Assembly: GCA_035693165.1 (NCBI GenBank)
Contig: DASSGZ010000499.1
Location: forward strand, 617 to 64,616
DNA length: 64,000 bases
Reading direction: 5' to 3'
Source: Chloroflexia bacterium
Lineage (GTDB): Bacteria; Chloroflexota; Chloroflexia; QHBQ01; JAICKM01
Part shown: one piece after another, positions 5,279-33,832 of the stretch
How positions within the stretch are numbered: the first letter of the stretch is position 1
Layout: every line of letters begins with the position of its first letter
Program-made: the position numbers and the translations under genes
The notes under the pieces: model-generated
What the model was told of the DNA's origin: nothing
Seen by the model: the letters and a program-made list of their open reading frames with translations, nothing else
Database searches by the model: none

Positions 5279-5581
5279 GCATCAGCGTGTTGTGAACACG
5301 ATATTTATTTCACCGCGAAGGAACGAAGGACGCGAAGATCATTGGTATCAATTGTGTTCTTCGCATTCTTCGTTGCTTCCCTGAAAGTGGGGAAGAAGGG
5401 TAGCCAGGGGCTTGTCTAGCGAGCGCAGCGAAGAATCTCGTCTCGTGCGGGTCCACGCCGCGACTCTGCGCGGCGCTCCGAGGGCCAAGCCGCCTTTCAT
5501 GCCCCCAGTGTCCCACCGGGACACTCCCCACTTCGTGGTGCGTTTTAGTTGAAAATCGGGAGGTGTCGCAAAACGCTTACT

Positions 5582-6196: not shown

Positions 6197-6393
6197 AGCA
6201 CCCCAGGTGGACAGGATACGTGTTCGAGCCGGACGGCCTGGACCAGTATGAAGTCCGGCGCTGGGAGGGCTGGTATCGGCACATCACGCTAGCGATGCCG
6301 GCGCAAGCCTATTTGGTGGTGACCCGCGAGGCTGCCGCCGCCGAGCGGGAAAAAGGGGACCCGAAATCGGGCAGCAGGGAGGTCCGCCAATAG
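6193..6393 (+). pseudogene. C-terminal remnant of an IS701-type (IS4-superfamily DDE) transposase
   Basis: The translation [29 protein letters not shown] matches the conserved C-terminal signature I recall for IS701-family transposases. Only about 60 aa remain and no upstream DDE domain is present. Confidence 0.6.
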
Positions 6394-6563
6394 GAATGGC
6401 TGCCAGGCTCAAAGCGGGGCACGATCGCGATGGCGAAGCGGCGGTAGCGCAGCAGCGATCCGTTTTGGTATAATACTATGTTACGAACATGAAATGAGTT
6501 GACTAATCAAGTAATCGGCCCGCGCAAGCAGGGGCCGCAGCACAGGAGCAACACCACCACTTT

Positions 6564-8390
6564 ATGCCCAAAAACAAAGGCTATTCGCAGCAATCCAGCA
6601 AGCAGAGCGCCAACCGCACCGCAGGGGTGGTCCGCGAACGACTGGCCCAGGAGACCGGCACCATCCGCAAGGACTGGGGCGGGCGCATCCGCGTGGGCCT
6701 CGTCTTCCCCAACACCTATTATATCGGCATGTCGAGTCTCGGATTCCAGACGATCTACCGGCTGTTCAACGAAGCGTCGGATGTCGTATGTGAGCGCGCC
6801 TTCCTGCCCGACAGCGACGGCCAGTTCGAGATGCCGCGCAACCGGCCCGACCTGGAGCCGCTGACGCTGGAGTCGGGCCGCCCGCTGCGCGAGTTCGACG
6901 TGGTCGCATTTTCGGTCAGCTTCGAGCTGGACTATTTCCATATGGTGCAGATTCTGCGCGCCGCCGGGATCCCGTTGCTGGCGCGCGACCGCACCGACGA
7001 CGACCCGATTGTCATCGCCGGAGGCGCCTGCATCATCGACAACCCCGAGCCGGTGGCCGATTTCCTCGACATCGCCTTTGTCGGCGAGGGCGAGGCCCAG
7101 GTGCCCGACTTTATCGACGTGTTGCGCGCCGAATTAGAGCATGGCCGCGACGCGGTGCTGAAGGGCGCGGCTCGCCACCAGGGCATGTACGTCCCAGCCT
7201 TCTACGATGCGAGCTACCAACCCGAGGGCATGTTTGCCGGGATCACGGCCAACGCGACCCACCCGACCCCCGAATCGGCGCTGCCGATCCGCAAGCAGCG
7301 CGTGCGCAACCTGGCCGAGTTCCAGACCTCGTCGGTGATTCTCACCCAGAACACCGAGTTCGGCAGCAGCTACCTGCTGGAGACGGCGCGCGGCTGCGCC
7401 CGCGGCTGCCGATTCTGCCTGGCCTCCTACGGCTTCATGCCGCAACGCGAACGCAAGCTGGAAGACGTGGTCGAGCAGGCCCGCTACGGCTTGCAGTTCC
7501 GCGACAAAATCGGGCTGATGGGGCCGTCGGTCTCCGACTACCATGCCATCGACGAACTGGTGACGGCGATCCGCGAAATGGGCGGCAAAGTATCACTCGC
7601 CTCGATGCGCGCCGACAGCATCTCGCCCGCGATTCTGCAGGCACTTATCGGCGGAGGCGCGCGCACCATCACTTTCGCCCCCGAGGGCGGCTCGCAGCGC
7701 ATGCGCGACGTGATCAACAAGAACCTGAACGAAGACCAGATCCTGGCTTGCGCCGAGTTGATCGGGCGCATGGGCGGCCAGGCGATCAAGCTCTACTACA
7801 TGTGCGGCCTGCCCGGCGAGACCGAGGAGGACGTGCAGGGTATCGTGGACCTGACGCTCAAGGTGAAGGATCGCCTGAACCGCTACGCGCCGGGCGGCGA
7901 GGTCCAGGGCAGCGTCACGCCCCACGTGCCGAAGAGCCACACGCCGTTCCAGTGGGCGCAGATGTACCCGCTCGACGTGATCGAGGAGCGAGTCAACTTC
8001 CTGCGCAAGGCGCTGCGCAGCAAGGGCGTGGTCTTCAAGATCGACAGCCCCAAGTGGCTGCGCGTGCAGGGCGTGCTGGCCCGCGGCGACCGCCGCCTCA
8101 GCGCCGTCCTGGCCGCTATGGAGGGCATGAGCCACGCCGACTGGAAGCGGGCCATGGACGAGGTGGGCCTCAGCGAGGATTTCTACGCCCGCGAGCGCCC
8201 GCTGGACGAACTGTTCCCCTGGTCGCACATCGAGGAAGGTGTATCGGCCCGCGCCCTGGGCCAGCAGTGGCAGCGCGCCACGAGCGAAGTACCCGGCTAT
8301 GAAAAGGGCCAGATCCTGGGCAACGCCCAGCGCCACCTGCTGGAGTTCTACAAAACCGGCGACGCGAACTTGATCCGCTCGGCGCGGTAG
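6564..8390 (+). CDS. Radical SAM protein with an N-terminal B12-binding-like domain (TIGR03960-like family)
   Basis: The 608-aa product has a CxxxCxxC cluster motif (RGCARGCRFC). The N-terminus VGLVFPNTYYIGMSSLGFQTIYRLFN is typical of this uncharacterised radical SAM family. An extended -10 (TGgTATAAT, 6466-6474) lies upstream. Confidence 0.85.
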   Translation: MPKNKGYSQQSSKQSANRTAGVVRERLAQETGTIRKDWGGRIRVGLVFPNTYYIGMSSLGFQTIYRLFNEASDVVCERAFLPDSDGQFEMPRNRPDLEPLTLESGRPLREFDVVAFSVSFELDYFHMVQILRAAGIPLLARDRTDDDPIVIAGGACIIDNPEPVADFLDIAFVGEGEAQVPDFIDVLRAELEHGRDAVLKGAARHQGMYVPAFYDASYQPEGMFAGITANATHPTPESALPIRKQRVRNLAEFQTSSVILTQNTEFGSSYLLETARGCARGCRFCLASYGFMPQRERKLEDVVEQARYGLQFRDKIGLMGPSVSDYHAIDELVTAIREMGGKVSLASMRADSISPAILQALIGGGARTITFAPEGGSQRMRDVINKNLNEDQILACAELIGRMGGQAIKLYYMCGLPGETEEDVQGIVDLTLKVKDRLNRYAPGGEVQGSVTPHVPKSHTPFQWAQMYPLDVIEERVNFLRKALRSKGVVFKIDSPKWLRVQGVLARGDRRLSAVLAAMEGMSHADWKRAMDEVGLSEDFYARERPLDELFPWSHIEEGVSARALGQQWQRATSEVPGYEKGQILGNAQRHLLEFYKTGDANLIRSAR

Positions 8391-8513
8391 CGGTCGACCG
8401 AGCTAAGCTGGGCACAGAGTTTGCGATCCGTTACCTGACGCCATCGTCTAAAGGCGGTGGGGTCTTTATTTGATAGACAAACCCTACGCGGCCACCTATC
8501 GAAAGAGGATGTC

Positions 8514-8933
8514 ATGCCTGATCGTAATCAGCCCATCATCGACGAGTTTCGCGCCAACAACGGCAAAGTCGGCGGGTACTTCGCCGGCGCCAACATGCTC
8601 CTGCTGCACACGGTCGGAGCCAAGACCGGCCAGCCCCGCACGAACCCGCTGGTCTACGTCACCGACGGCGATCGCCTCGTTATAATCGCATCCAAAGGGG
8701 GCGCTCCCAGTAACCCCGACTGGTACTACAATCTACTGGCTAACCCCCTCGTGACGGTTGAACTGGGCAACGAGCAGTTTCAGGCGCGGGCGACCCCAGT
8801 GACCGAAGAACCGGAGCGCTCTCGCCTCTACGCCAAGATGGTTGATCATCGAGCTGGCTTTGCCGAGTATGAGGAAAAGACCAGCCGCAAGATTCCCGCC
8901 ATCATTCTGGAACGAGTAAGCGCATCGGCCTGA
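8514..8933 (+). CDS. Deazaflavin (F420)-dependent nitroreductase family protein (DUF385/Ddn-like)
   Basis: ATG 8514 follows AGAGGA. Motifs FRANNGKVGG, LLLHTVGAKTGQPRTNPL, GG...NPDWYYNL and RKIPAIILE are typical of the Ddn family. Confidence 0.85.
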   Translation: MPDRNQPIIDEFRANNGKVGGYFAGANMLLLHTVGAKTGQPRTNPLVYVTDGDRLVIIASKGGAPSNPDWYYNLLANPLVTVELGNEQFQARATPVTEEPERSRLYAKMVDHRAGFAEYEEKTSRKIPAIILERVSASA

Positions 8934-9019
8934 ACCGAACATTGCTGCTGCGAACCGCACTGTAGCAAATGAGCTGGACACTCGCGCAACTTCAGGGTGT
9001 TTCTTGGCTAATGTGCTTT

Positions 9020-9048
9020 TTGCAGCAGCTTCCTCATTGTGGTATACT
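9020..9048 (+). promoter_or_regulatory. Sigma-70-type promoter for the SLH surface protein gene
   Basis: TTGCAG (9020-9025), a 17-nt spacer, then TGgTATACT (extended -10; hexamer 9043-9048). This implies a leader of about 215 nt before ATG 9269. Confidence 0.6.
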
Positions 9049-9268
9049 AGTCGTGCGGCATCGTGCAGTATCTCGCAAATCCCCGGTGTAGTAACTTTAA
9101 TTCAATATGGTAAGCACAGTATTCGGGTGCCCGTGTAGTCACCAGCGGTTCGGCCCATAGCCACCGCTTGTGCTATTTGAGTGATCCTCTCCCCGTGGAC
9201 TGTGTATTCGCGGCTGCGTGACACAAGACCCCAGACCCTATTTCTATATCTACAAGGAGACAGGACTC

Positions 9269-11101
9269 ATGCGGGGAAATCGACCAAACCCGAGCGCCAT
9301 CCGCGCCTGGTGGGGTATCGGCGCGTTGGTATTGGGCATGCTGGCTCTTACGGCGGGAACCATAATCGGGGGCAGCGTCCCCATGCAGGCGGGGGCGCTC
9401 CCACCCGGTCAGGGCGCCGCACCGGCGGCTTGCGGCGCCTGGTCGCTGGCGACCAGCCCCAGTCCGTCCAACGCGAGCCTGCTCTATGGAGTCAAGGCAA
9501 TCGCGGCCGCCGATGTTTGGAGCGTCGGGGTGTATAAAGACTCGACCGATAACGTGAACAAGACCCTCACCGAACACTGGAACGGCACAAACTGGACCAC
9601 CGTCGCCAGCCCGAACGCCGAAACTGCGTACCCTGGCTATAACCAACTCACCAGTGTGGATGGGCTGGCCGCCGACGACGTGTGGGCCGTGGGCCGCACC
9701 ACCCATGGCGCCCTGACCGAGCATTGGGACGGCACTCAGTGGACCATCATCCCCGTCCCTGACGACCTGACCATCGGGTACCTTCTGGGAGTGAAGATGG
9801 TCTCACATAACGATGTCTGGGCAGTGGGCTACGCGCCCGTTGGGGGCTATCCGAACCGCGGGCGCATCATCCACTGGAACGGGGCCACCTGGAATGCCGT
9901 ATACGTCTCCTCCGATCTGGATCGCAGCACAACGATCAGCAACCTCGCCGTCGTGTCGGCCAACAACATCTGGGCGGCGGGGTCCATTATGATGCATTAT
10001 GACGGAACCGCCTGGACCGAAGTCCCGAATGTCGTGCCGCTGACGGGCGTGTTAAACGGGATCACGGCGATCACGGCGAACGATATCTGGGCCGTGGGCT
10101 GGAATACGCCGGGCACGTACGCGCAAACCTATACAACACACTACGATGGCGCGACCTGGACCGCCCAGCCCAGCCCGAACGCCGAGACCGAAAGTGTGTT
10201 GAATGCAGTGAGTGCAGCCTCCGGCGAGGTGTTAGCAGTAGGCTACAGCGATCCGGGCAGCAGCTATGGGCATACCCTGGCGATGCGCTGGACCGGTAGC
10301 GCCTGGAGCATCGTCAGCAGCGCGAGCCAGGACGAAAACAGCGAACTCGACGCGGTCAGTGTGCTGCCGGCGGGTGAGGCCTGGGCGGTCGGTTCCAGCT
10401 ACATCCATGGTGGCGCGCAGCATACCGTCGTCGAGTCCTATACCGCCGGATCGTGCGGCACGCCCACCCCGACGCCGCCGCCCTGCACAATAAGCTTTAG
10501 CGACGTGCATACGAGCGATTACTTCTACACGCCGGTGCAGTACCTGGCCTGCCACAGCGTGATCGCGGGCTACGCGGACGGCACCTTCCGGCCCTTCAAC
10601 AACACCACGCGCGGGCAGCTCGCCAAGATCGTGGAGGGTGGCTTCAACCTGCCGATCACCACCCCGCCGGCGGGCGGCCAGACCTTTGAAGATGTCGCTC
10701 CCAGCAGCACTTTCTTCAGCTACATCGAAACCCTGGCTGCACGCGGGATCACCAGCGGCTATACCTGTGGCGGGGCCAACGAGCCGTGTATCCCGCCCGC
10801 TAACCGGCCGTATTTCCGGCCGGGCAACAATGTGACCCGTGCTCAGTTGGTGAAGTTCGTCGTGGTTGCCGGTAACCAGCAGTTCGGCTGGCCCCTGCTC
10901 AACCCGGCGACCGCGTCGTTCAGCGATGTGCCGGTGGGCAGCCCCTTTTATCAGTATGTGGAAACCGCCGTCTGCCGAGGAGTGTTGTCCGGCTATAGCG
11001 ATGGGACGTTCCGGCCCGCCAACCCCGCCACGCGCGGCCAGATCGCCAAGATTGTCTACAATGCCGTCACCGGCACGTCCACCGGCTGTACCGGCCCCTG
11101 A
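9269..11101 (+). CDS. Secreted surface protein: N-terminal signal/TM, about 7 beta-propeller-like repeats and 3 C-terminal SLH domains
   Basis: SD AAGGAGA precedes ATG 9269. The repeat unit h(W/Y)(N/D)G..W...(30-40 aa)...D(V/I)WAVG recurs about 7 times. Three SLH-like repeats follow (FSDV...Y..V..L......GY.DGTFRP....TRGQ.AKIV). Confidence 0.85.
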   Translation: MRGNRPNPSAIRAWWGIGALVLGMLALTAGTIIGGSVPMQAGALPPGQGAAPAACGAWSLATSPSPSNASLLYGVKAIAAADVWSVGVYKDSTDNVNKTLTEHWNGTNWTTVASPNAETAYPGYNQLTSVDGLAADDVWAVGRTTHGALTEHWDGTQWTIIPVPDDLTIGYLLGVKMVSHNDVWAVGYAPVGGYPNRGRIIHWNGATWNAVYVSSDLDRSTTISNLAVVSANNIWAAGSIMMHYDGTAWTEVPNVVPLTGVLNGITAITANDIWAVGWNTPGTYAQTYTTHYDGATWTAQPSPNAETESVLNAVSAASGEVLAVGYSDPGSSYGHTLAMRWTGSAWSIVSSASQDENSELDAVSVLPAGEAWAVGSSYIHGGAQHTVVESYTAGSCGTPTPTPPPCTISFSDVHTSDYFYTPVQYLACHSVIAGYADGTFRPFNNTTRGQLAKIVEGGFNLPITTPPAGGQTFEDVAPSSTFFSYIETLAARGITSGYTCGGANEPCIPPANRPYFRPGNNVTRAQLVKFVVVAGNQQFGWPLLNPATASFSDVPVGSPFYQYVETAVCRGVLSGYSDGTFRPANPATRGQIAKIVYNAVTGTSTGCTGP

Positions 11102-11114
11102 GCATGCGGCCCCC

Positions 11115-11239
11115 CGCGCAACAGAAGATCGGTGGGACTCCTCGCCCGCCCGGTGATCTTCTGTTGCGCGTGACCCTATCTTGATCAAAGATAGTAAAGA
11201 TCCGCCGGCCTCTTTCGAGCGCCGGCGGATCTTTACTAT
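11115..11239. terminator. Hairpin cluster between convergent genes (bidirectional terminator region)
   Basis: A perfect 16-bp stem pairs 11115-11130 with 11155-11170. A 7-bp hairpin lies at 11176-11194. A perfect 19-bp stem ATAGTAAAGATCCGCCGGC (11191-11209) pairs with 11221-11239. Confidence 0.7.
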
Positions 11240-11242
11240 ATT

Positions 11243-11280
11243 CTGATAGCTGACCGCTGATAGCTGACGGCTGACCGCTC
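11243..11280. repeat. Tandem CTGATAGCTGAC(C/G)G units, related to the 1479-1523 repeat
   Basis: The sequence is ctgatagctgaccg ctgatagctgacgg ctgaccgct. Its reverse complement contains TCAGCCGTCAGC, identical to the stem arm at 1492-1503. Confidence 0.6.
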
Positions 11281-13305
11281 TTACGGCCCGATCTGCGGTT
11301 CCACGCCGTGGGGCGTCAGGGGTACGTTGGTGCGGGTGACGCTGGGCAGTGGGGGCGCGGGGTAGCCGTCGCGGAAGTCGGCGGCGGCGGGTTTGAACGA
11401 GCCGTCCAGGCGCACCAGGCCGAAGTGGGCCTCGTAGTTGCGCTGCGGCGCGTTCTTGCCGTAGTCCCACAGCGTCCACTGCATCATCCCGGCGATGCCG
11501 GCGGCGCGGGCCGCGCCCAGCATCGTCCGGTACAGACCCTGCTGCGTCGGCTCGTCATAGGTCGCCGCCGCCGTGGACTCCGCCGCCGGGCCGGTGGGCC
11601 AGCCGAACTCGCTGACCAGGATGGGCAGCTTGGTGTGCGCCTTGACCGCCGCGATTTGATCGGCGAAGCGGCCCGCATCGTAGCTGTGGAAGCTGGCGAA
11701 GTCGACAAAGTCGAGCACGGCCAGCTTGCGCGGCGCTTGCCACAGATTCTCGTAGTTGCCCATGCCGACCGTGATCGGGTGGCGGGTGTCGATGGAGCGC
11801 ACCGCCTGGGCGATCATGTTCAGCCAGCCGATCATCAGCGTCGGGTTGCGCCGCCCCACCACGCCGTTGTCGGGCTCGTTACGCAGGTCCCAGGCCAGCA
11901 CGCGGTCGTCGTTGGCGAACGGCTCGACCAGGCCCTGCACATAGTTCAGTTGGATACGCTTGTCCGCGTCGCCCAGTTCCTCGATGCGGTCGGTGGCGTC
12001 GAACAGCGCGAAGATGACCTTCATGTCGTAGGACGCGGCGATTTGTAGGAACTGGGTCATCAGGTTGATGATCGGGCCGTTGATCCGCTCGCTCGCCTTG
12101 TCGCCCCAGACGGTATCGCGCAGCGACAGATAGTCATAGGGCAGCGTGATGCGCACGGTGTTGACGCCCAGCTCATGGGCCTTGCCGAGTTCGGCTTTGA
12201 CTGTCGGAGCGTCCCACTCCGCCCAGGTCGTGACGAAGGGCGCGTCGTGCAGCCAGTAGTTGGTGCCCTTGATTGTGATCGGCTGCCCGCGCAGCACCAA
12301 CTGGTCGCCCTCGACATGGACGAAGGCATCAGCGGGCGGCAGCGGCGGGGCGTTGGTCACGGCGACGGGCGCGGCTTCGGGCAGCGGCTGGCCGTAGCGC
12401 CACTGATAGTAGTGCTGGCCCACGTTGCCCATCTGCACCTGCCACGCAGGCGGGAAGCTAGGCACAAACGTCAGCACGCGGCGTTGGAAGAGCTGCACCA
12501 GCACCTCGGTCGGCTTGCCGTTGATGATCGCCGTGGTCCAATATGCCTCGGTGATCGGATAGCCGAGCACAAACACCGGGTCGAACAACTGGCGCTGGTC
12601 ATACACGCCGCCGGTGAGCACGAGGCCATGGGCCGCCATGAAGCTCCAGAACACATCGGGCACGTTATGGCCGGTCTCCTGCACATAGGCCACGTTGCTC
12701 ACGTTGATGTCTTTGGTCAGCGGGCGTTGCCCGGCGCCGTCGCGGTTGATGGTGCCGACGACGATCTTCTTGTTCACCGGCGCGCGCCGGTCCGGCCCGC
12801 CGGGCAGCGAAGCCACACTTGCAAAGCTACGGTACGTGGGCACGCGCGCATCACCGGGCGCGGGCGGCTCGCCCACCACCGGCACATCGGCGGGGCCGCG
12901 CGCCTCGAACTGGTTCGGCCCGGTCTGGATCTGCCCGCTCACCAGTTCGACGACGAGCAAGCCGCTGGTCGCCGCCCAGGGGCTGTTCGGGTCTTTGACC
13001 GCCGGGTTTACCTCCATGCGGCCCTTGTCGAAGTACTGCACCTGGCGGGTGCCGTTGGGCGCGCCGGCAAACGGCTCCTCGCGCGTCGGGCCCGGCCCCG
13101 GCCCCCAGGTCCACGACCGGTGGGCGATATTCGCGGCCACGGGCGCGTCGGTCCGCGACCAGACCCGCTCGAACAGCGGCGAGGCGAACTGCGCCGTCGC
13201 AGCAGGGGGGGTCGCCAGGTAGCTGGCCTGTGCGGGCGCGAAGCGATAGGTGGTCAGCAACAGCAGGCCCAGGGCAAGCAGGGCCGTCACACGGTTCAGA
13301 CGCAT
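11281..13305 (-). CDS. Secreted glycoside hydrolase family 5-like protein with N-terminal LGFP-like/carbohydrate-associated repeats
   Basis: ATG 13305 gives a signal peptide (MRLNRVTALLALGLLLLTTYRFAPAQA). The GH5 acid/base motif WDLRNEPD and nucleophile motif VSEFGW are present. It is a paralog of 21354-23651. Confidence 0.8.
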   Translation of the reverse strand: MRLNRVTALLALGLLLLTTYRFAPAQASYLATPPAATAQFASPLFERVWSRTDAPVAANIAHRSWTWGPGPGPTREEPFAGAPNGTRQVQYFDKGRMEVNPAVKDPNSPWAATSGLLVVELVSGQIQTGPNQFEARGPADVPVVGEPPAPGDARVPTYRSFASVASLPGGPDRRAPVNKKIVVGTINRDGAGQRPLTKDINVSNVAYVQETGHNVPDVFWSFMAAHGLVLTGGVYDQRQLFDPVFVLGYPITEAYWTTAIINGKPTEVLVQLFQRRVLTFVPSFPPAWQVQMGNVGQHYYQWRYGQPLPEAAPVAVTNAPPLPPADAFVHVEGDQLVLRGQPITIKGTNYWLHDAPFVTTWAEWDAPTVKAELGKAHELGVNTVRITLPYDYLSLRDTVWGDKASERINGPIINLMTQFLQIAASYDMKVIFALFDATDRIEELGDADKRIQLNYVQGLVEPFANDDRVLAWDLRNEPDNGVVGRRNPTLMIGWLNMIAQAVRSIDTRHPITVGMGNYENLWQAPRKLAVLDFVDFASFHSYDAGRFADQIAAVKAHTKLPILVSEFGWPTGPAAESTAAATYDEPTQQGLYRTMLGAARAAGIAGMMQWTLWDYGKNAPQRNYEAHFGLVRLDGSFKPAAADFRDGYPAPPLPSVTRTNVPLTPHGVEPQIGP

Positions 13306-25209: not shown

Positions 25210-26151
25210 ATGCTTGATCCCATCTCGCCGCTCGCGCGTGCCAGCTACGATTTGTTCAACGGAACCCTGTTCATCTCGTTCCTGATCCTCCTGGGCATCG
25301 GCGGATTCATTCTGTATATGATCTTCCGCTTCCGGGCCAGGCCGGGGGACGATACGGAGCCGCCGGCGATCTACAGTAACCAGCGCCTGGAGATCGCCTG
25401 GACCGCCGGCCCTGCCCTCATCCTGCTGGGTGTGCTCTTCTTCGCCATCCCCGCGCAGCTCTCGCAGGAAGTCGAGACCAGCAAGCCCGCCGATGGGCAG
25501 GAGCCGCCCGATATCCAGATCATCGGGCACCAGTGGTGGTGGGAGATCCGTTATCCCCAGGCCGGCGCCAGCGTCATCACCGCCAACGAACTCCACATGC
25601 CGGTCGGCAAGCGCTTATTGATCCAGGTCGATTCGGGCGACGTGATCCACGACGTGTGGATCCCGCGACTCGGCCCGAAGATGGACACCGTGCCCGGCCA
25701 GACCAACTGGATGTGGTTGCAGGCCGACCGGGCGGGCACCTATCCCGGCGTCTGCGCCGAGTATTGCGGGACGGAGCACGCCTGGATGCTGCTCAAGGCC
25801 ATCGCCCAGCCGCAGGCCGAGTTCGACGCCTGGCTGCAACAGCAACGCGCCCCGGCGGTGGCGCCCACAACCGCCGAGGCGCAGCATGGCGCGCAACTCT
25901 TCGCCCAGCGGACGTGCATCAACTGCCACGCGATCAGCGGCACCGCGGCCCAGGCGCGCGTCGGCCCCGACCTCACCCACTATGCCAGCCGCGGGGTGCT
26001 GGGCGCGGGCGTCCTGACCCGGACCCCGGAGAACACCATGCGCTGGCTGAAGGACCCGCAGGAAGTCAAGCCGGGCAATCGCATGCCCAACCTGCACCTG
26101 GCCCCGGATGAGTTGCGAGATCTCACGGCCTATATGGAGAGCTTGAAATGA
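25210..26151 (+). CDS. ctaC: Cytochrome c oxidase subunit II with fused C-terminal cytochrome c domain (caa3 type)
   Basis: Two N-terminal TM helices, CuA motif CAEYCGTEH and haem c motif CINCH. Confidence 0.93.
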   Translation: MLDPISPLARASYDLFNGTLFISFLILLGIGGFILYMIFRFRARPGDDTEPPAIYSNQRLEIAWTAGPALILLGVLFFAIPAQLSQEVETSKPADGQEPPDIQIIGHQWWWEIRYPQAGASVITANELHMPVGKRLLIQVDSGDVIHDVWIPRLGPKMDTVPGQTNWMWLQADRAGTYPGVCAEYCGTEHAWMLLKAIAQPQAEFDAWLQQQRAPAVAPTTAEAQHGAQLFAQRTCINCHAISGTAAQARVGPDLTHYASRGVLGAGVLTRTPENTMRWLKDPQEVKPGNRMPNLHLAPDELRDLTAYMESLK

Positions 26152-27809
26152 GCGCAATTCCGCTGGTTCCCGAACCCACCGAAGCCCTGCCGGCTGTTCG
26201 CTCCGACGAGGGGCTGATTAGCTGGATCGCATCGGTCGATCACAAGCAGATCGGCATCCTGTACCTGATCACGACGATCTTCTTCTTCGTCGTCGGGGGC
26301 ATCGAAGCCCTATTGATGCGGCTGCAACTGGCGGTGCCCGGCAATACGCTGCTGCAACCGGGGGCCTATAACCAGATCTTCACTATGCACGGCACGACGA
26401 TGGTCTTCCTGGTCGTCATGCCCATCCTGATCGGGTTCGCCAACTACTTCGTGCCGCTGATGATCGGGGCGCGCGACGTGGCTTTCCCGCGCCTGAACGC
26501 CTTCAGCTACTGGATGTTGCTGTTCAGCGGCCTGCTGCTCTACTACAGCTTCGTGGCGGGCGGCGCGCCCGACGCCGGGTGGTTTGCCTACGCACCCCTG
26601 AGCGAACGGCCCTACGCGACCACGCCCGGCCTGGACTACTACACCGTGGGCCTGCTGGCAAGCGGTATCGGCACCGTCGCCTCCGCGATCAACCTGATCG
26701 TCACCATCCTGCACCTGCGCGCGCCGGGCATGACGCTGCGCCGGCTGCCGCTCTTTGTCTGGATGGTGCTGTTCAACTCGATCCTGATTATTCTCGTGAT
26801 TCCGGCGCTCAACGCCGCGCTGGCGATGCTGCTCATCGACCGCCAGTTGGCCGCGCACTTCTTCGACCCGCTGCACGGCGGCCACCCGCTACTCTGGCAG
26901 CACATCTTCTGGTCCTTCGGCCACCCCGAAGTCTATATCATGGTCTTGCCGGCCTTCGGCATGATCTCGGAGATGATCCCCGTCTTCTCCCGCAAACCGA
27001 TCTTCGGCTACGGCTTCGTGGCCGGTTCGACCATCGCCATCGGGTTCTTGAGCCTGCTGGTCTATGCGCACCACATGTTCACGGTCGGCCTGGGCTTCAC
27101 GCTCGACCTGGCCTTCGGCCTCGCCAGCATGATGATCGCCATCCCTACCGGGGTCAAGATCTTCAACTGGACGACGACCATGTTCCGCGGCAGGCTCCAC
27201 TTCACCACCGCGATGAAGTTCGCGGTGGCCTTCCTGATCCTGTTCTCGATGGGCGGCGTCACCGGCGTGCAGTTCGCGACGGTGCCGGTCGACAAGCAAC
27301 TGACCGACAGCTACTACGTGGTGGCACACATGCACTATGTGCTGTTCGGCGGCACGGCCTTCGCGGTGTTCGGCGCCTTCTATTACTGGTTCCCCAAGAT
27401 GACCGGGCGGATGCTGTCGGAGCGCTGGGGCAACGTCCACTTCTGGCTGGCCTTCATCGGCTTCAACATGACCTTCCTGATCCAGCACGTGCTGGGCTGG
27501 GAAGGGATGCCGCGCCGGGTGTGGACCTATGCCGACAATCCCGGCTGGGGCCTGATGAACATGATCTCGACCATCGGCGCGTTCATCCTGGCCTTCTCGG
27601 TGCTGGTCTTCGTCATCAACTGTGTAATCAGCCTGCGGCGCGGCCAGATCGCGGGCGATAATCCCTGGAACGCCTGGACGCTGGAATGGGCGACCACCTC
27701 GCCGCCGCCCATCCACAACTTCGACCAGATCCCGCCTATCCGGGGCCGCCGGCCTCTCTGGGACCTGGCCCATCCCGAAGCCGCCGACTGGAAGAATGAG
27801 CACCATTAG
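26148..27809 (+). CDS. ctaD: Cytochrome c oxidase subunit I
   Basis: ATGA overlap with ctaC. The 553-aa 12-TM protein carries conserved haem-copper oxidase motifs (WFFGHPEVY-like FWSFGHPEVYI; HHMF). Confidence 0.96.
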   Translation: MSAIPLVPEPTEALPAVRSDEGLISWIASVDHKQIGILYLITTIFFFVVGGIEALLMRLQLAVPGNTLLQPGAYNQIFTMHGTTMVFLVVMPILIGFANYFVPLMIGARDVAFPRLNAFSYWMLLFSGLLLYYSFVAGGAPDAGWFAYAPLSERPYATTPGLDYYTVGLLASGIGTVASAINLIVTILHLRAPGMTLRRLPLFVWMVLFNSILIILVIPALNAALAMLLIDRQLAAHFFDPLHGGHPLLWQHIFWSFGHPEVYIMVLPAFGMISEMIPVFSRKPIFGYGFVAGSTIAIGFLSLLVYAHHMFTVGLGFTLDLAFGLASMMIAIPTGVKIFNWTTTMFRGRLHFTTAMKFAVAFLILFSMGGVTGVQFATVPVDKQLTDSYYVVAHMHYVLFGGTAFAVFGAFYYWFPKMTGRMLSERWGNVHFWLAFIGFNMTFLIQHVLGWEGMPRRVWTYADNPGWGLMNMISTIGAFILAFSVLVFVINCVISLRRGQIAGDNPWNAWTLEWATTSPPPIHNFDQIPPIRGRRPLWDLAHPEAADWKNEHH

Positions 27810-27822
27810 GGGGAGTCACGCC

Positions 27823-28455
27823 ATGACAGGCATTGAACACCTGAACGCCGGGCGCGCGGAAACGGAAGCGCCGCACCTCGACCGGTTTGAACGGCTGGAA
27901 CCGAACCAACTGGCGGTCGCCATCTTCATCCTGTCCGAAGTGGTCTTCTTCGCCATGCTGATCATCGCCTATATCTTCTACCGGGACTCGCCCGCCGTGG
28001 CCGGCGGCCCCACGGCGAAGACGGCCCTCGATATTCCGCTGACCACGCTGTTCAGCATCTGCCTGTTCGCCAGCAGCGGCACGATCTGGTTCGCCGACCG
28101 CAGCCTGGCGCGCGGCAACGAGAACGGCGTGCGGCTGTGGCTGGGCGCGACGATTGTCCTGGGCGCCGTCTTCATCGGCGGGCAGGGATACGAGTACTTC
28201 AAGTTGCTCAGCGAGGACATCACGCTGAACACGAACCTGTTCGGCACCACCTTCTATACGCTGACCGGCTTCCACGGCCTGCACGTGACCGCCGGGCTGG
28301 TCGCGCTGATCATTCTCTTCGTCCTGGCCTTGATGGGCCAGTTCCGCAACGTCACGCACAACTCGGCCATGGCCGCGATCTCGTTGTACTGGCACTTTGT
28401 CGACGTGGTGTGGGTGGTGGTCTTTTCCGTCGTCTACATCTGGGCGTTGTTCTGA
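27823..28455 (+). CDS. ctaE: Cytochrome c oxidase subunit III
   Basis: SD GGGGGAG precedes ATG 27823. TFYTLTGFHGLHV and YWHFVDVVWV motifs are present. Confidence 0.9.
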   Translation: MTGIEHLNAGRAETEAPHLDRFERLEPNQLAVAIFILSEVVFFAMLIIAYIFYRDSPAVAGGPTAKTALDIPLTTLFSICLFASSGTIWFADRSLARGNENGVRLWLGATIVLGAVFIGGQGYEYFKLLSEDITLNTNLFGTTFYTLTGFHGLHVTAGLVALIILFVLALMGQFRNVTHNSAMAAISLYWHFVDVVWVVVFSVVYIWALF

Positions 28456-29276
28456 TGACTGTGCAGCGGCTGCTACTGACGGCGTGGGAGTGGGAACCCT
28501 CCGTGGTGCTGGGGTGCATCGCGCTGGTGCTGGCCTATCTGGCGGCCCTGCGCTTCCGGCCCAGCATGGCCTGGGTGCCCTTCCTGCTGGGCGTGGGCTT
28601 CTTACTGCTCAGCCTGGTCTCGCCCATCGATGTGCTGGGCGATCGCTACCTGTTCAGTATGCACATGCTGCAACACCTGTTGATGATCGTGGTGGTGCCG
28701 CCGCTGCTGCTGCTGGGGTTGCCGGCGGACCTGCTGCGGCGGATACTGGCCTGGCGCCCAGCCCGGATCGTCGCCACGGCGGCCAGTAACGGCCCGGCGG
28801 CCTGGGTGCTCGCCGTGACCACACTCTACGTGTGGCACGTGCCCGCGCTCTACGACGCCGCGTTGCACAGCGAGCCGCTGCACATCCTGGAACATCTCTG
28901 CTTCCTGGTCACGGCGACGATCTTCTGGTGGCCGATCCTGGCGCCTCTGCCGGAATACCGCCTGCCGGTGGCGAGCGGCATTATCTATCTGTTCGCGGCC
29001 TCCCTCGCCAACGACGCGCTGGGCATCGCGATCACCTTCGCGGCGCCCGGCCTCTATCCGACGTATTTGCGCCCGGATAACGCGCAAGGCATCTTAACGC
29101 TGCTGCGCGACGACCTGAACATCTCGGCGCGCCAGGACCAGCAAGCCGCCGGGGTCCTCATGTGGATCCCCAGCAACCTGCCGCTGCTGGTGGCCGTCAT
29201 CGGTCTCCTGATCCGCTGGTTTGGCGAGCCGGAGCCGGACATCACCCCGGCCAACGACTCCGCCGGGGCAGGGTAA
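28455..29276 (+). CDS. ctaG: Cytochrome c oxidase assembly factor CtaG (Caa3_CtaG family)
   Basis: The ATG overlaps the ctaE stop (TGATG). It is a polytopic membrane protein with a HMLQH motif. Confidence 0.8.
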   Translation: MTVQRLLLTAWEWEPSVVLGCIALVLAYLAALRFRPSMAWVPFLLGVGFLLLSLVSPIDVLGDRYLFSMHMLQHLLMIVVVPPLLLLGLPADLLRRILAWRPARIVATAASNGPAAWVLAVTTLYVWHVPALYDAALHSEPLHILEHLCFLVTATIFWWPILAPLPEYRLPVASGIIYLFAASLANDALGIAITFAAPGLYPTYLRPDNAQGILTLLRDDLNISARQDQQAAGVLMWIPSNLPLLVAVIGLLIRWFGEPEPDITPANDSAGAG

Positions 29277-29300: not shown

Positions 29301-29777
29301 ATGGATCCCGAAGAACGAGCCATCCCACCCACGCACGAGGAGTTCGCGCCCCCGGCAGCCGTGACCCGTGGGATCATGGGGCGGGCGGCGGGACTCGCCG
29401 CTACCGGCGCCCATGCCGCCCTGGCCGGGCTACGCACCACGCCGGTGCCCGTATTCGCCGGGGCACCCGCGCTAACCGTCGCTTCAATGCCGGCGGGCAG
29501 CGGCGCGGCGCGGGACACGACGAGTGCCGGGCCGGATGCGAGCGAGCCGATCCGCCCCCGCCCGCACGAGATCCCGCACATCGAGCCGGATCCCGGTTGG
29601 AACCTGCCCCGACCCGCGCACCTGCCCCACCCGACCTACTGGCCCGCCGTGCTGGCGATGGGCATCGTCTTTTTCGCCTGGGGCTTGGTAACAAATCCCG
29701 TCGTCACCGCCGTCGGCGTCATCATTTTCTTCGTTGCCCTGCTGGGGTGGATTGGAGAGATGCGCCATGATTCGTGA
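29301..29777 (+). CDS. Small membrane protein: Pro/Ala-rich N-terminus plus C-terminal 2-TM hairpin ending GWIGEMRH (possible oxidase subunit IV-like)
   Basis: A strong SD (GGGAGGAG) precedes ATG 29301. The C-terminal hairpin PTYWPAVLAMGIVFFAWGL...VGVIIFFVALLGWIGEMRH is paralogous to the C-terminal tail of the next gene product. Confidence 0.7.
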   Translation: MDPEERAIPPTHEEFAPPAAVTRGIMGRAAGLAATGAHAALAGLRTTPVPVFAGAPALTVASMPAGSGAARDTTSAGPDASEPIRPRPHEIPHIEPDPGWNLPRPAHLPHPTYWPAVLAMGIVFFAWGLVTNPVVTAVGVIIFFVALLGWIGEMRHDS

Positions 29778-31797
29778 GGCCCTGCCCCTGGCCGGCGCCC
29801 GGCCCGCGCGGCCCCTCCCGCGCCTCGGCATCCGCGCCTATCGCCGGCTAACGGCGGCCACGGCCGCCGCCACCTGGATCTTGATCGTGCTGGGCGGCAT
29901 CGTGCGGGCGACGGAGTCGGGCCTCGGCTGCGCCACCTGGCCCATGTGCGACGGCAGCCTGCTGCCGAAGCTGGAGTATCACCAGCTCATCGAGTGGAAT
30001 CACCGCTTCTTCGCCACGCTCGTCGGCCTGCTGATGATCGCCACGGTCGGCGCCACCCTGCTCTGGTTCCGGCGGCCCCGGCGGCTGCTCTGGCTGGCGC
30101 TGCTGGCCGCCGTGACCTACATCGTGCAGGCCATCCTGGGCGGGATCACCGTGCTGCTCAAGCTGCCGCAGACCTGGATCGCCGCCCATATGGGCAACTC
30201 GATGCTGCTGCTGGCCGCCCTGATCCTGCTGGCGCTCTTTGCCTACCTGGGGCCGGTGGGCGTGGGCGAGTCCGACCGGCGGCTGCGCCGGCTGGCGCTG
30301 GGCACCACCCTCTGGACCTATGCCGCGATGTTCACCGGATCCGCGGTGGTCGGGGCCAAGGCCGATCTTGCCTGCCCGGCCTGGCCCTTCTGCGCCGACA
30401 CCAACCTCCTGCCCGTGACCTTCGACCAATGGATCAACTTCGGCCACCGCATCTCCGTCGCGTTTTCCGATATCCTGATGCTGCTGCTGGCCGTCGCCAT
30501 CTGGCGCACCCGGCAGGGCAATCGCCGGCTCATGCTCAGCACGCACATCCTGGCCGTGTTCTATGTCGGTCAGGTCTTGCTGGGCGCCGTCACCATCTGG
30601 ACCGGCGCGCCGCCGGTGATGAAAAGCGCGCACCTGGCGCTGGCCGCCGCCGTCTGGGGCGCGCTGGTGCTGATGACGGCCTTCGTCTGGATCGGCGCCC
30701 CCGATGCCGCACCCGGCGCCGGTCCCGGCGAACCGGCCCCGCGCCGCGCCCGCCGCCCGCGCCCGGCCCCGCTCGTGACGCAGGCTCACGCGCAGTACCG
30801 GGTGCTGGAGACAGCCCAGGCTTACGCCACCCTGATGAAGCCGCGCATCATCCCCTTGCTGCTGGTGCCCACCGTGGCGGCCATCTTGATGGCGGCGATG
30901 ATCCACCCGCCCGCGCAGCCGCTGCCCTGGCTGATCGTCTGGACCATGCTCGGCGGTATCCTGGCCGCCGGAGGCGCGCACGCCCTCAACCACTACCTGG
31001 ATCGCGACCTCGACAGCCGGATGCGGCGCACCCGCAACCGGCCCGTCGTCACCGGGCGCATCCGGCCCCGGCGGGCGCTGGCCTTCGGCGTTGTGCTCAG
31101 CGTGCTGGCCTTCGGGCAACTCTGGCTCACGACCAACCTCACGGCGGCCCTGCTGGCCATCGCCGGCAACCTGTTCTATGTCTTTATCTACACCATCTGG
31201 CTGAAGCGCACCAGCACGCAGAATATCGTGATCGGCGGCGCGGCGGGCGCGGTGCCGCCGCTGGTGGGCTGGGCCGCCGTGACCGGCGACATCGGCGTGC
31301 CGGCGCTGCTGTTTTTCACCATCATCTTTTTCTGGACACCGCCGCACTTCTGGGCGCTGGCCCTGGTGCGGCAAGAAGACTACCGTGCGGCGGGGATCCC
31401 CATGCTGCCGGTCGTGCGCGGAGCGTATAACACCCGCGTGCAGATCCTGGTCTACAGCGTGTTGCTGCTGGCGGTGAGCCTGTTGCTGTTCGCCACGAAC
31501 GCGCTCGGCCTCATCTATCTGGCCGCCGCGACCGCGCTGGGGGCGATGTTCGTGCTGCGCGCCGGCCAGCTCCTGGGCGACGGCTCGGTGCCGCGCGCCT
31601 GGCGCCTGTTCAAGTTCTCGAATATCTATCTGGCTTTGCTCTATCTGGTCATGGTAGTGGATCGGCTCGTCGCCTTCGCCGGGATCAGCGTCCTGCTCTG
31701 GGGACTGCTGATGATCGTGCTTGCGGCCGGCGTGGCGCTAATCGTGATGGGCCTGGCTTGCGCCGGCTGGATTGGAGAACTTCGCCATGGCACATGA
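29767..31797 (+). CDS. ctaA-ctaB: Fusion protein: haem A synthase (CtaA/COX15), then protohaem IX farnesyltransferase (CtaB/COX10), then an extra C-terminal 2-TM hairpin
   Basis: The N-terminal half has the COX15 signature (GGIVRATESGLGCATWPMC). A Pro/Arg linker sits near nt 30700-30790. The UbiA-type CtaB half follows (YATLMKPRII...NHYLDRDLD...WTPPHFWALA). The tail ends AGWIGELRH. Confidence 0.88.
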   Translation: MIREALPLAGARPARPLPRLGIRAYRRLTAATAAATWILIVLGGIVRATESGLGCATWPMCDGSLLPKLEYHQLIEWNHRFFATLVGLLMIATVGATLLWFRRPRRLLWLALLAAVTYIVQAILGGITVLLKLPQTWIAAHMGNSMLLLAALILLALFAYLGPVGVGESDRRLRRLALGTTLWTYAAMFTGSAVVGAKADLACPAWPFCADTNLLPVTFDQWINFGHRISVAFSDILMLLLAVAIWRTRQGNRRLMLSTHILAVFYVGQVLLGAVTIWTGAPPVMKSAHLALAAAVWGALVLMTAFVWIGAPDAAPGAGPGEPAPRRARRPRPAPLVTQAHAQYRVLETAQAYATLMKPRIIPLLLVPTVAAILMAAMIHPPAQPLPWLIVWTMLGGILAAGGAHALNHYLDRDLDSRMRRTRNRPVVTGRIRPRRALAFGVVLSVLAFGQLWLTTNLTAALLAIAGNLFYVFIYTIWLKRTSTQNIVIGGAAGAVPPLVGWAAVTGDIGVPALLFFTIIFFWTPPHFWALALVRQEDYRAAGIPMLPVVRGAYNTRVQILVYSVLLLAVSLLLFATNALGLIYLAAATALGAMFVLRAGQLLGDGSVPRAWRLFKFSNIYLALLYLVMVVDRLVAFAGISVLLWGLLMIVLAAGVALIVMGLACAGWIGELRHGT

Positions 31798-32299
31798 TAT
31801 CAACGACCGCACCAGCGTCCGCACCCTCACCCGGCGCCAGTTTCTGACCTGGATCTCGGTGGCCCTGGGCGGCGTGGGCTCGGCGCTGGTCGGCATCCCG
31901 GTGATCAGCTTCCTGCTGGCGCCGCTCTTCGAGAAGCCGCGGCAAAGCTGGCGCCCGGTCGGCGACGCCGACCACTTTAAGATCGGGGAGACGGTGCAGG
32001 TCGCCTTCACCGACCCATCGCCCCTGCCCTGGGCGGGGGTCACGGCGGCCACGGCGGTCTGGCTGCGCCGGGAGAGCAAGGACCAGTTCACCGCCTTTGC
32101 CGTAAATTGCAGCCACCTGGGCTGCCCGGTCCAGTGGATCCCCGACGGCCAGTTGTTCCTATGCCCCTGCCATGGCGGGGTCTACTATGCCAACGGCACC
32201 GTGGCCGCAGGGCCCCCGCCGCGGTCCTTAACCACGTATAACGTCCGGGTCAACGCGGGCCAGGTCGAGATCCTCACCCAGCCCACGCCGATTGTGTGA
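31787..32299 (+). CDS. Rieske [2Fe-2S] subunit of a cytochrome bc-type complex
   Basis: Tat-like signal (TRRQFL) and Rieske boxes CSHLGC and CPCHGG. The ATG overlaps the ctaA-ctaB 3' end. Confidence 0.9.
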   Translation: MAHDINDRTSVRTLTRRQFLTWISVALGGVGSALVGIPVISFLLAPLFEKPRQSWRPVGDADHFKIGETVQVAFTDPSPLPWAGVTAATAVWLRRESKDQFTAFAVNCSHLGCPVQWIPDGQLFLCPCHGGVYYANGTVAAGPPPRSLTTYNVRVNAGQVEILTQPTPIV

Positions 32300-32386
32300 G
32301 GCCCGGTTCGCGGCGCGGCGGTGTGCCCGCCGGGGCCGGTTCGCCGACCGGGACCCCGCCCGCGGATCGCGCAAAGGAGCAAGACA

Positions 32387-33832
32387 GTGGGATTCTTCAG
32401 TCGCATAGTCGCCCTGTTGAAGCAGGCCTGGGAGACGTTTGACGACCGGACAGGGACCTCGCAGCTCATCGGCCCGATAATGACCCACCCGGTGCCCGAG
32501 GCAGGACGCAAGGGCTGGTTCTATGTGTTCGGGAGTGCCACCCTGTTCTCCTTCATCGTGCAGGTGGTGACCGGCATCGCCCTCGCCACGGCCTACATCC
32601 CGGCCTCCGGCGAAGCGTACCAGAGCCTGCAGTTCATCAGCGACCCGGTCAACGGGCCGACGCTGGGGCCGCTGCTGCGCGGCATCCACAACTATGGCGC
32701 CTCGGCCATGGTGGTGTTGATCGGCGTCCATGCCCTGCGCGTCTTTCTCATGGGGTCGTATAAATATCCGCGCGAGTTTAGCTGGCTCAGCGGCTCGGTG
32801 CTGCTGCTGCTGACGCTGGGCATGGCCTTCACCGGCCAGTTGCTGCGCTGGGACCAGACGGCCTTCTGGTCGGTAATCGTAGCCGCCGAGCAGGCCGGGC
32901 GTGCCCCGCTGATTGGCCCGGCCCTGGCCCAGTTCATCCTCGGCGGATCGACCGTCGGCGGCGCGACCCTGAGCCGATTCTATGCGTTCCACGTCTTCTT
33001 CATACCCGCGCTCATCTTCGGCCTGATCGGGTTCCACCTGTACATGGTGCTGCATGTCGGCATTTCGGAGCCGCCGCAGGCCGGGCGCCCGGTGGACCCT
33101 AAAACCTATCGCAAGTGGTATCACGACATGTTGCAACGCGAAGGCGTGCCCTTCTGGCCGGATGCCGCCTGGCGCGACGCTATTTTCGGCGTGCTCGTCA
33201 TCGTCACCATCGTGGCGCTGGCGTTTATCCTGGGCCCGCCCAAGGTCGATATCCCGCCCGATCCGACGCTCTTGAACGCCTACCCGCGCCCGGACTGGTA
33301 TCTGCTGTGGTATTTTGCCGCGCTGGCGTTGTTGCCGCCGGAGTCCGAGAACTGGGTCATCATCGGCGGACCGCTGGTGCTGGGCCTGGTGCTGTTCCTG
33401 CTGCCGCTGGCAAATCGCGGCGAGCGCCATCCCAAGCGCCGGCCCTGGGCGATCGGTCTCTCCATCGTGGTGGTGCTAATGATCGCCTCATTGTCGGTGG
33501 TGGGGCAAATCTCGGCCTGGTCGCCCGACTTCAAGGCCCAACCGCTGTCGCCCCAGGTCGTCGCCAGCAACGAGCCGTCTATCATCCATGGGGCTCAACT
33601 GTTCAACAGCAAGGGTTGCCAGGCGTGCCACGCCATTGCGGGCAGCGGCGGCGCCCGCGGCCCCGACCTGACCGCCGTGGGCAGCCGCCTGACGCGCGAC
33701 CAGTTGGTCTGGCGCATCCTGAACGGCGGGGTGAATATGCCGGCCTTCGCCAATAATATGACGCCGGAGGAACTGACCGACATAGTCAACTTCCTGGAAA
33801 CGCGGCGGGGCACGCAGGCATCCTCGCCCTGA
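32387..33832 (+). CDS. Cytochrome b (b6 plus subunit-IV-like portions fused) with a C-terminal mono-haem cytochrome c domain
   Basis: SD AAAGGAG precedes GTG 32387. Cytochrome b motifs (HNYGAS...H..R.F..G.YKYPRE..W..G; FTGQLLRWDQ) and C-terminal CQACH are present. Confidence 0.88.
   Translation: MGFFSRIVALLKQAWETFDDRTGTSQLIGPIMTHPVPEAGRKGWFYVFGSATLFSFIVQVVTGIALATAYIPASGEAYQSLQFISDPVNGPTLGPLLRGIHNYGASAMVVLIGVHALRVFLMGSYKYPREFSWLSGSVLLLLTLGMAFTGQLLRWDQTAFWSVIVAAEQAGRAPLIGPALAQFILGGSTVGGATLSRFYAFHVFFIPALIFGLIGFHLYMVLHVGISEPPQAGRPVDPKTYRKWYHDMLQREGVPFWPDAAWRDAIFGVLVIVTIVALAFILGPPKVDIPPDPTLLNAYPRPDWYLLWYFAALALLPPESENWVIIGGPLVLGLVLFLLPLANRGERHPKRRPWAIGLSIVVVLMIASLSVVGQISAWSPDFKAQPLSPQVVASNEPSIIHGAQLFNSKGCQACHAIAGSGGARGPDLTAVGSRLTRDQLVWRILNGGVNMPAFANNMTPEELTDIVNFLETRRGTQASSP

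Follow-up and report, generated by a model that had tools for sequence, protein, structure and literature searches.

A 39-residue tail on the CtaA-CtaB fusion protein of a Chloroflexia genus as a probable scar of operon rearrangement

The stretch of DNA analysed here, called the window, comprises 64,000 nucleotides (nt) from a Chloroflexia bacterium (contig DASSGZ010000499.1, positions 617 to 64,616 of the forward strand, assembly GCA_035693165.1) and carries a cluster of respiratory genes. One open reading frame (ORF) of this cluster joins haem A synthase (CtaA) and haem O synthase (CtaB) in a protein of 676 amino acids (aa), and ends in a 39-aa tail. Judged from the sequence, this tail is a paralogue of the C-terminus of the 158-aa small membrane protein encoded just upstream. 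It appears to be what remains of the 3' end of an earlier small-gene copy that became joined in frame to ctaB, and to be an evolutionary scar, not a demonstrated docking device. Together with a gene junction that was duplicated with it, the tail is probably the trace of an operon rearrangement.

The match of the haem o synthase equivalog NF003349 (NCBIfam) ends at residue 637 of the fusion, so that residues 638-676 remain as the tail, for which no match was found in Pfam. In BLASTP, the last 38 residues of the small protein align with the fusion without gaps (15 of 38 identical, E 2e-6), and the codon-aligned DNA of the two ends is identical at 63 of 117 positions. We also built a hairpin profile from the small-protein homologues of nine other genomes, with the window genome left out, and ran it against the 7.43-Mb assembly, in which six-frame translation gives 123,371 ORFs of at least 30 aa. 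It turned out that the small protein (E 9e-21) was followed by the CtaAB tail (E 1.4e-5), and that no other match was better than E 3. The tail covers profile positions 11-46; it has neither the HLPxPTYWP start nor the first half of helix 1. Between the WGL and GWIGE motifs there is an identical spacing of 23 residues, with no gaps, in the tail and in the small protein. A preliminary description of this DNA had proposed the homology from the sequence alone and had named a profile comparison of the two hairpins as one result that could refute it; the similarity was significant for the full-length profile.

To describe the gene order, we mapped the operon genes onto regions fetched from relatives. 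In another genus of the same taxonomic order, the genes run coxB-coxA-coxC-ctaAB-ctaG-small-Rieske-cytb as far as the contigs reach, in eight operon copies from seven genomes (G013, G026, G035, G024, G038, G030 twice and G032), and G008, from a second genus of the window's own family, has the same ancestral order up to the contig end. Within the window's genus the order is coxC-ctaG-small-ctaAB-Rieske in G000, G005, G004, G001, G006 and a soil-metagenome contig (L117). The exception is G003, which has coxC-ctaG-small-Rieske with ctaAB elsewhere.

The small gene of the other genus ends in ...GWIGELRHEDGSE, ...GWIGELLHENPEQ and similar sequences before the stop, with the Rieske ATG within the His codon, and the small-Rieske junction there has the consensus GGNTGGATYGGAGAnnTnnnnCATGA. 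The string TGGATYGGAGA..CATG joins the small gene to Rieske in G032, G030, G035 and G038, and it is found at both junctions of every operon of the window's genus in which ctaAB lies between small and Rieske. The junction between the tail and Rieske is thus positionally the ancestral small-Rieske junction, and for this reason the tail is read as the 3' end of a former small gene. The Rieske-side junction would be the ancestral copy, which stayed in place as ctaAB moved, and the second copy, now coupled to ctaAB, would be that of the intact small gene. In the sister genus 5-6 codons follow the His, whereas both copies in the window's genus have a derived His-x-x-stop ending with an 11-nt overlap. 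Because this derived ending is shared by both copies, the duplicated piece must have run past the ATG to the stop.

The tail is present in the CtaAB of G005, G004 and L117. In sister genera and the wider Chloroflexota CtaAB ends directly after ...DR(V/L)x, with no tail. Of the conservation that the preliminary description wished to see checked across the lineage, the part concerning the fusion stood, this being widespread in Chloroflexota, and the part concerning the tail did not. The ...ALGW and ...ALGG endings of the sister-genus CtaAB were also considered as junction relics and were rejected, as they encode the Shine-Dalgarno site of ctaG; the ctaAB-ctaG junction there is a 4-nt ATGA or an abutting TGATG stop/start, not the His-x-x-stop architecture with its 11-nt overlap.

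These comparisons suggest the following course. In the ancestral order, the end of the small gene (G-W-I-G-E/D-x-x-H) would have held the GGAG and the ATG of Rieske, and in the ancestor of the genus ctaAB would have moved to a place between the small gene and Rieske. Most likely, the ctaAB-ctaG-small block would first have been duplicated in tandem, the copied segment extending a few codons beyond the Rieske ATG. The first ctaAB copy would then have been lost, and a deletion that kept the reading frame would have removed the DNA between the last codons of the second ctaAB and about codon 120 in the second small copy. The outcome would be a small gene coupled to ctaAB by a junction copy, and a ctaAB that has the 38 terminal codons of the old small gene at its end and is coupled to Rieske. 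We infer this duplication-and-loss route with less certainty than the relic nature of the tail. It resembles the tandem-duplication-random-loss model of gene-order change, which is known above all from the mitochondrial genomes of animals, in that adjacent blocks have swapped order and a fragment of a duplicated gene was left at the new boundary. It differs in that the setting is a bacterial operon and the fragment is translated within another protein, with the coupling signal intact in sequence. One genome of the other genus, G030, has two copies of the entire cox-ctaAB-ctaG-small-Rieske-cytb cluster (L112 on G030:C4, and L113 on G030:C11 at about 4700-13200); the C11 copy contains many shifted pieces and an internal stop, and is explained either by decay of a duplicate operon or by a second strain that was binned with the first.

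The two 22-nt junctions, which had been quoted in the preliminary description, proved correct when the strings were checked, with 19 of 22 nt shared. In the whole genome (both strands, 7.43 Mb) the pattern TGGATYGGAGAnnTnCGYCATG has exactly two sites, namely these junctions, and both carry the codons ATT (11% of Ile) and GGA (6% of Gly), which are rare in the codon usage of the operon. At both, the codons for WIGE encode a GGAG Shine-Dalgarno site 9 nt before the downstream ATG, as had been proposed for ctaA-ctaB and for Rieske. The 16S rRNA of the window genome has the 3' end ...GATCACCTCCTTTCT (also given as ...CACCUCCUUUCU) with the anti-Shine-Dalgarno CCUCC, which makes GGAG at this distance a plausible Shine-Dalgarno site. 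The ATG...TGA overlap is 11 nt at both junctions, the ctaAB ATG lying 8 nt upstream of the small-gene TGA and the Rieske ATG being embedded in the His codon of the upstream ORF, and the His-x-x-stop ending is the same. Both pairs therefore have the sequence features of translationally coupled genes, with overlapping starts and a 16S-complementary Shine-Dalgarno site 5-10 nt upstream. Consistent with the paralogy of the tail and with a junction that occurs exactly twice in the genome, the duplicated unit can still be described, as it was at first, as a transmembrane segment plus a translational-coupling junction.

In the lineages with Rieske after ctaAB, the constant elements are the GGAG-like Shine-Dalgarno site, CATG, the 11-nt overlap and an open frame leading into them. 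For this reason the best-supported retained function of the tail would be in-frame translation up to these signals, by which Rieske is coupled to the upstream gene.

The history of the tail within the genus was followed on a maximum likelihood tree of concatenated operon proteins, ((G004,(G001,G006)),((G003,L117),(G000,G005))), in which the genus has a support of 100% and the internal nodes 83-100%. Long tails of equal length (39 aa) and with equal boundaries (AF followed by (A/G)G...LLW) are found in G000/G005, in L117 (...FGDSRLLLWSLVTLVLVAGVAAFLVKAVRAGWMGELRHGT) and in G004 (...FGGRTALLWGLAAATAAAGGIVIWWARARTARMGALHHGT), so that each side of the basal split has them. In G004 the tail has decayed to RARTARMGALHHGT, which is Arg-rich and has lost the motif, yet it retains GGGAG, CATG and TGA. 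Short relics consisting of only the last 8-9 codons are present in G001 (...DRVVTFIGGGPHGI, FIGGGPHGI and stop), G006 (...DRLIAWLGGSIHVH, WLGGSIHVH and stop) and G003 (...LAALAGLPHGT and stop), and all three keep the I/L-G-x-x-x-H-x-x-stop spacing, a GGAG-like Shine-Dalgarno site and CATG. Of the seven genus-level lineages examined, three thus have a tail cut down to 8-9 codons, and a fourth has a degenerate one. Parsimony requires at least two changes from long to short, as secondary deletions, and it is most likely that the long tail is ancestral in the genus and was then repeatedly trimmed.

In G003, ctaAB lies outside the oxidase operon and adjoins a gene resembling a glycogen-branching enzyme (L105, G003:C510 1660-1800; L116, G003:C894 1-300). 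The relocated gene has an upstream relic ...AGWTGGLCHAE and stop with an overlapping ATG, possibly the end of a 39-codon upstream ORF, and the downstream relic ...LPHGT and stop. As relics flank it on both sides, ctaAB of G003 would have left the small-ctaAB-Rieske position after the scar had formed. The G003 operon has reverted to small-Rieske, with a decayed junction (GWVGELRRAE and stop, ATGA overlap).

Selection was estimated crudely by the NG86 method as the ratio of non-synonymous to synonymous substitution rates (dN/dS). Over the first 29 tail codons, dN/dS is about 0.9, 0.9 and 1.9 in three pairwise comparisons, against 0.35-0.6 in the paralogous part of the small gene and 0.3-0.4 in the preceding 78 codons of CtaB; these values come from a small sample of 29-39 codons, with dS near saturation. 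The helical part of the tail thus seems to evolve at roughly neutral rates.

As to its shape, the preliminary description had taken the tail for a two-helix hairpin, and this was not upheld. AlphaFold2, run with a nine-sequence alignment, gave eight helices for CtaA and nine for CtaB with a mean predicted local distance difference test score (pLDDT) of 78.6 overall, and modelled tail residues 640-672 as a single continuous helix, at a pLDDT below 50 and with no alignment depth there, so that this is indicative only. The counterpart region of the small protein consists of the end of helix 1, a loop (TNP or TSx) and helix 2; the tail is equivalent to half of helix 1 plus helix 2, and the loop (TNP) is replaced by hydrophobic residues. 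In all three long-tail lineages about 20-22 hydrophobic residues (LLW...) are followed by basic residues. The tail is therefore probably one extra transmembrane helix, not a hairpin. Both termini of CtaA are cytoplasmic, and proteins of the UbiA family have nine helices with the N-terminus inside, which places the C-terminus outside. The tail would then be an 18th transmembrane helix that brings the C-terminus of the nine-helix CtaB back to the cytoplasmic side, and it would be oriented like helix 2 of the small protein.

Several observations weigh against the reading of the tail as a rearrangement scar or set limits to it. A core-only profile, from which the terminal GWIGE motif was removed, did not detect the tail in the genome, and without this motif the transmembrane part has only a weak and old similarity to the small protein; the DNA upstream of the terminal motif has 38 of 84 nt identical (background 27 +/- 4), a value reached by 0.9% of in-frame windows. 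Because the core-only profile missed the tail, the homology call rests on the full-length match plus synteny. None of the relatives showed an intermediate with two full copies or a scar between coxC and ctaG. The placement of G004 has a support of only 83-85%, and the long tail might be a synapomorphy of a subclade, with G001/G006 having resolved independently. Between G000 and L117, the last ten tail codons (AGW(I/M)GELRHGT) differ by one non-synonymous and four synonymous changes (dN 0.045, dS 1.0), and they are less constrained in G004. Besides, the G000 tail equals the G000 small protein in its closeness to the family consensus, and the length is exactly 39 aa across three deep lineages. 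Some selection at the peptide level may thus have acted on the tail.

What the tail was derived from can be described more closely. The N-terminal part of the small protein, about 110 aa, is rich in Ala and Pro, and a two-helix hairpin (HLPHPTYWP...WGL...GWIGEMRHDS) forms its C-terminus. In a large protein collection 13 close homologues were found, all unnamed proteins, which share a conserved ...RPRPHEIPHIEPDPGWNLPRP... segment and the hairpin. The N-terminal region (window 29301-29630) is variable except for a strongly conserved RPRPHEIPHIEPDPGWNLPRPAHLPHPTYWP segment just before the first helix, whose GW...P...PTYWP core is invariant, the sister genus included.

A likeness to actinobacterial subunit IV (CtaF, PF12270) had been suggested for the hairpin. 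The resemblance is real, as PF12270 matches 10 of 10 members of the small-protein family (best E 2.6e-5), but every match is below the gathering score (at most about 20 bits), so that family membership did not hold. For the small protein of the window the match has E 0.0047 and 17.4 bits, against a gathering cutoff of 26.9, over profile positions 84-126 of 132, where the ten family members tested all align. These positions are the last two helices, and CtaF of the aa3 oxidase shares with the small gene the location in a cox/bc cluster, but only two of its four helices are represented. A profile search of PDB sequences with the small-protein hairpin gave chance-level matches only (E >=0.8), with no mycobacterial CtaF chain among them.

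The hairpin profile also matches a C-terminal extension of CoxA in other Chloroflexota (L008, L030 and L062), and these carriers were confirmed as PF00115 COX1 plus extension. With the extensions and small ORFs of Solirubrobacterales, the hairpin aligns at an hhalign probability of 98.7% (E 1.9e-16, 52 columns), and tblastn of the window small protein matches the CoxA extensions directly (E 1e-7). The HLPxP(S/T)YWP...G...W motif layout is the same in both, whereas here the hairpin is in a separate 158-aa protein with a long Ala/Pro-rich N-terminus, the CoxA of the window has no extension, and no more than about one and a half helices of it remain in the CtaAB tail. The best reading of the small protein is that of a free-standing, subunit-IV-like counterpart of the two-helix CoxA extension, and the distribution looks complementary, with the hairpin fused where the free gene is absent and free where CoxA is short. 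The CoxA proteins with an HLPxPSYWP extension are 620-650 aa long (L008 8606-8746; L062 8736-8882; L030 about 2470-2590). Solirubrobacterales have, in their coxB-coxA-ctaB operons, a small ORF with conserved sequence (...GEEIHLPGPS...RWIxDTRRE...LPLD) directly 3' of ctaB (L050 5127-5438, L069 5040-5312, L024 5075-5341 and about 15 more); it is homologous to the window hairpin, and matches PF12270 below threshold only.

This ancestry leads to the question of docking, which the preliminary description had raised. It is unlikely, in our view, that the tail is an exapted subunit-IV-like helix which docks the haem O/A synthase on CoxA or a supercomplex, at or near the site of the small protein. The derivation from a protein homologous to the CoxA extension would fit this idea, as would the invariant tail length in three deep lineages, the identity of 45-53% between the G000 tail and the small-protein hairpins of other genomes, the GW(I/M)GELRHGT end kept between G000 and L117 despite four synonymous changes, and the hairpin-protein genes that adjoin ctaB in Solirubrobacterales too. 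However, the reading is weakened because the tail was lost repeatedly, the helix being deleted in G001, G006 and G003 and degenerate in G004; a dN/dS of about 1 across the helical part and the lack of the tail in all other CtaAB fusions examined also speak against it. Only half of helix 1 of the small protein is kept and the loop is erased, by which the original fold is lost. The Shine-Dalgarno site, the ATG and the N-terminal codons of Rieske overlap the conserved end of the tail, and this alone would constrain it. Docking may still apply to the lineages of G000 and L117, in which the terminal motif has been well preserved, and if it were true, haem a synthesis would be placed beside its acceptor. 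In a more specific form, which we consider quite unlikely, the exapted helix with its GW(I/M)GELRHGT end would mimic helix 2 of the small protein, sitting transiently at that site on nascent CoxA, so that the fused synthase would pass haem a directly to CoxA before the small subunit replaces the helix; the lineages without the helix would then depend on diffusion or another factor.

Another possibility concerns the age of the helix. The long tail would not be ancestral; a short relic of 8-9 codons would have come first, and the 30-codon helix would have been added by a second duplication or a gene conversion from the small gene. The short form does stand alone in three lineages, and the support at the node placing G004 is moderate. 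But the long tails of G004, L117 and G000/G005, identical in length and boundaries, lie on both sides of the basal split and would require independent identical insertions, and each tail shares only about 26-40% identity with the small protein encoded beside it, which speaks against a recent conversion. This course of events is very improbable. It is hardly credible that unrelated hydrophobic C-termini each gained the W-I-G-E codons by convergence, GGAG being needed before an overlapping ATG: in-frame Shine-Dalgarno sites shape C-termini elsewhere in the operon (sister-genus ctaAB, ...ALGG and ...ALGW, for ctaG) and the core-only profile missed the tail, but the gapless, identical WGL/GWIGE spacing, the tail as sole second match of a profile from other genomes, the same His-x-x-stop and 11-nt overlap at both junctions, a tail-Rieske junction in the very position of the relatives' small-Rieske junction, and a DNA identity 5' of the motif that only 0.9% of background windows reach all stand against it.

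The enzyme that carries the tail is, by family membership, a predicted haem A synthase plus haem O synthase, which would convert haem B to O and on to A, and the reading of the 676-aa ORF as CtaA plus CtaB is borne out by both Pfam and equivalog matches. PF02628 (COX15-CtaA) matches residues 27-301 over its profile positions 2-322 of 322 (E 3.8e-35; 121.9 bits, cutoff 29.9), and PF01040 (UbiA) matches residues 366-620 (E 1.9e-66, 224.3 bits); the haem o synthase equivalogs NF003349 and TIGR01473 reach 368.9 bits (cutoff 246) and 323.3 bits (cutoff 210.3). In the AlphaFold model, the eight helices of the CtaA half lie between residues 19 and 309. Two Cys pairs (C55/C61 and C203/C209) and four His residues (H79, H141, H227 and H289) are invariant in nine Chloroflexota fusions; their assignment as haem ligands we take from published CtaA work. 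The linker between the halves, described early on as Pro/Arg-rich, is seen in the sequence to be Pro/Arg/Ala-rich, and residues 312-344 are modelled as disordered (pLDDT <50).

The fusion is uninterrupted in independent assemblies, in G005 with 97% identity over the full length and in a second close relative with 72%, and the same two-domain protein is found across Chloroflexota at about 40% identity. Both Pfam domains are present in 18 of 18 database homologues. A frameshift artefact is ruled out by the intact ORF in G005, G004, L117 and many Chloroflexota. The fusion in itself is not new, since CtaA-CtaB fusions have been tabulated for Chloroflexi, Deinococcus-Thermus, Acetothermia, Bdellovibrio and others (PMC8239418) and are also mentioned in PMC9145763. 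The fusion of the window agrees with the known ones in the order of PF02628 and PF01040, in having the conserved Cys pairs and His residues, and in its location inside a cox operon, and differs by its 39-aa C-terminal extension derived from a neighbouring gene. The CtaAB of this genus is a lineage-specific variant of a known fusion.

The respiratory genes listed in Table 1 are co-directional and form one cluster.

Table 1. Coordinates of the operon genes, protein domains and gene junctions in the window
Feature	Position	Strand	Remarks
coxB	25210-26151	+	C-terminal cytochrome c domain
coxA	26148-27809	+	553 aa, without C-terminal extension
coxC	27796-28455	+	
ctaG, caa3-type	28455-29276	+	
Small membrane protein gene	29301-29777	+	158 aa, ORF
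Part of small gene paralogous to CtaAB tail	29661-29777	+	Codons G121-S158 plus stop; BLASTP 15/38
Junction copy 1, TGGATTGGAGAGATGCGCCATG	29748-29769	+	Small gene to ctaAB
ctaA-ctaB fusion gene	29767-31797	+	ATG at 29767, stop at 31797, 676 aa
Haem A synthase (COX15/CtaA) domain	29845-30669	+	Residues 27-301, Pfam
Pro/Arg/Ala-rich linker between enzyme halves	30670-30780	+	From sequence; residues about 302-340
Haem O synthase (CtaB/COX10, UbiA family) domain	30781-31677	+	Residues 339-637
CtaAB tail AGISVLLWGLLMIVLAAGVALIVMGLACAGWIGELRHGT plus stop	31678-31797	+	39 aa, residues 638-676
Junction copy 2, TGGATTGGAGAACTTCGCCATG	31768-31789	+	ctaAB to Rieske
Rieske iron-sulfur protein gene	31787-32299	+	PF00355 and twin-arginine translocation (TAT) signal match
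Cytochrome b gene with C-terminal c-type domain	32321-33832	+	ORF as listed from a GTG

Cytochrome b is fused at its C-terminus to a mono-haem cytochrome c domain (PF13442), and coxB likewise has a cytochrome c domain. The GTG at 32321 is probably too far upstream for the start of cytochrome b, as the alignment of the relatives begins only at about residue 23-30. Nearly all junctions of this operon have a Shine-Dalgarno site within the upstream ORF and a start/stop overlap. For instance, the C-terminus of coxB, YMESLK and stop, goes with TGGAGAGCTTGAAATGA (window 26120-26151; the corresponding junction of relatives was compared), and the sister-genus ctaAB ends in ALGG or ALGW with ATGA. In several operon proteins the C-terminal residues thus appear to be set by the Shine-Dalgarno site that the following gene requires.

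In conclusion, the picture of respiratory-chain biology is little changed, as CtaA-CtaB fusions and translational coupling are both well known. The naming of the 158-aa family as the free-standing equivalent of the CoxA extension is useful for the annotation of oxidase operons in Chloroflexota. The value of the finding lies mainly in molecular evolution, since it offers an unusually legible change of gene order in a bacterial operon, with a translated gene fragment fused to another gene. As read from the sequence, the coupler was duplicated with the fragment, so that both downstream genes would have stayed coupled. The relatives form a graded series, in which the relic is full, degenerate, reduced to 8 codons or moved to a new locus, and in the forms that stayed in the operon the peptide decays while the Shine-Dalgarno site, the ATG and the overlap persist.

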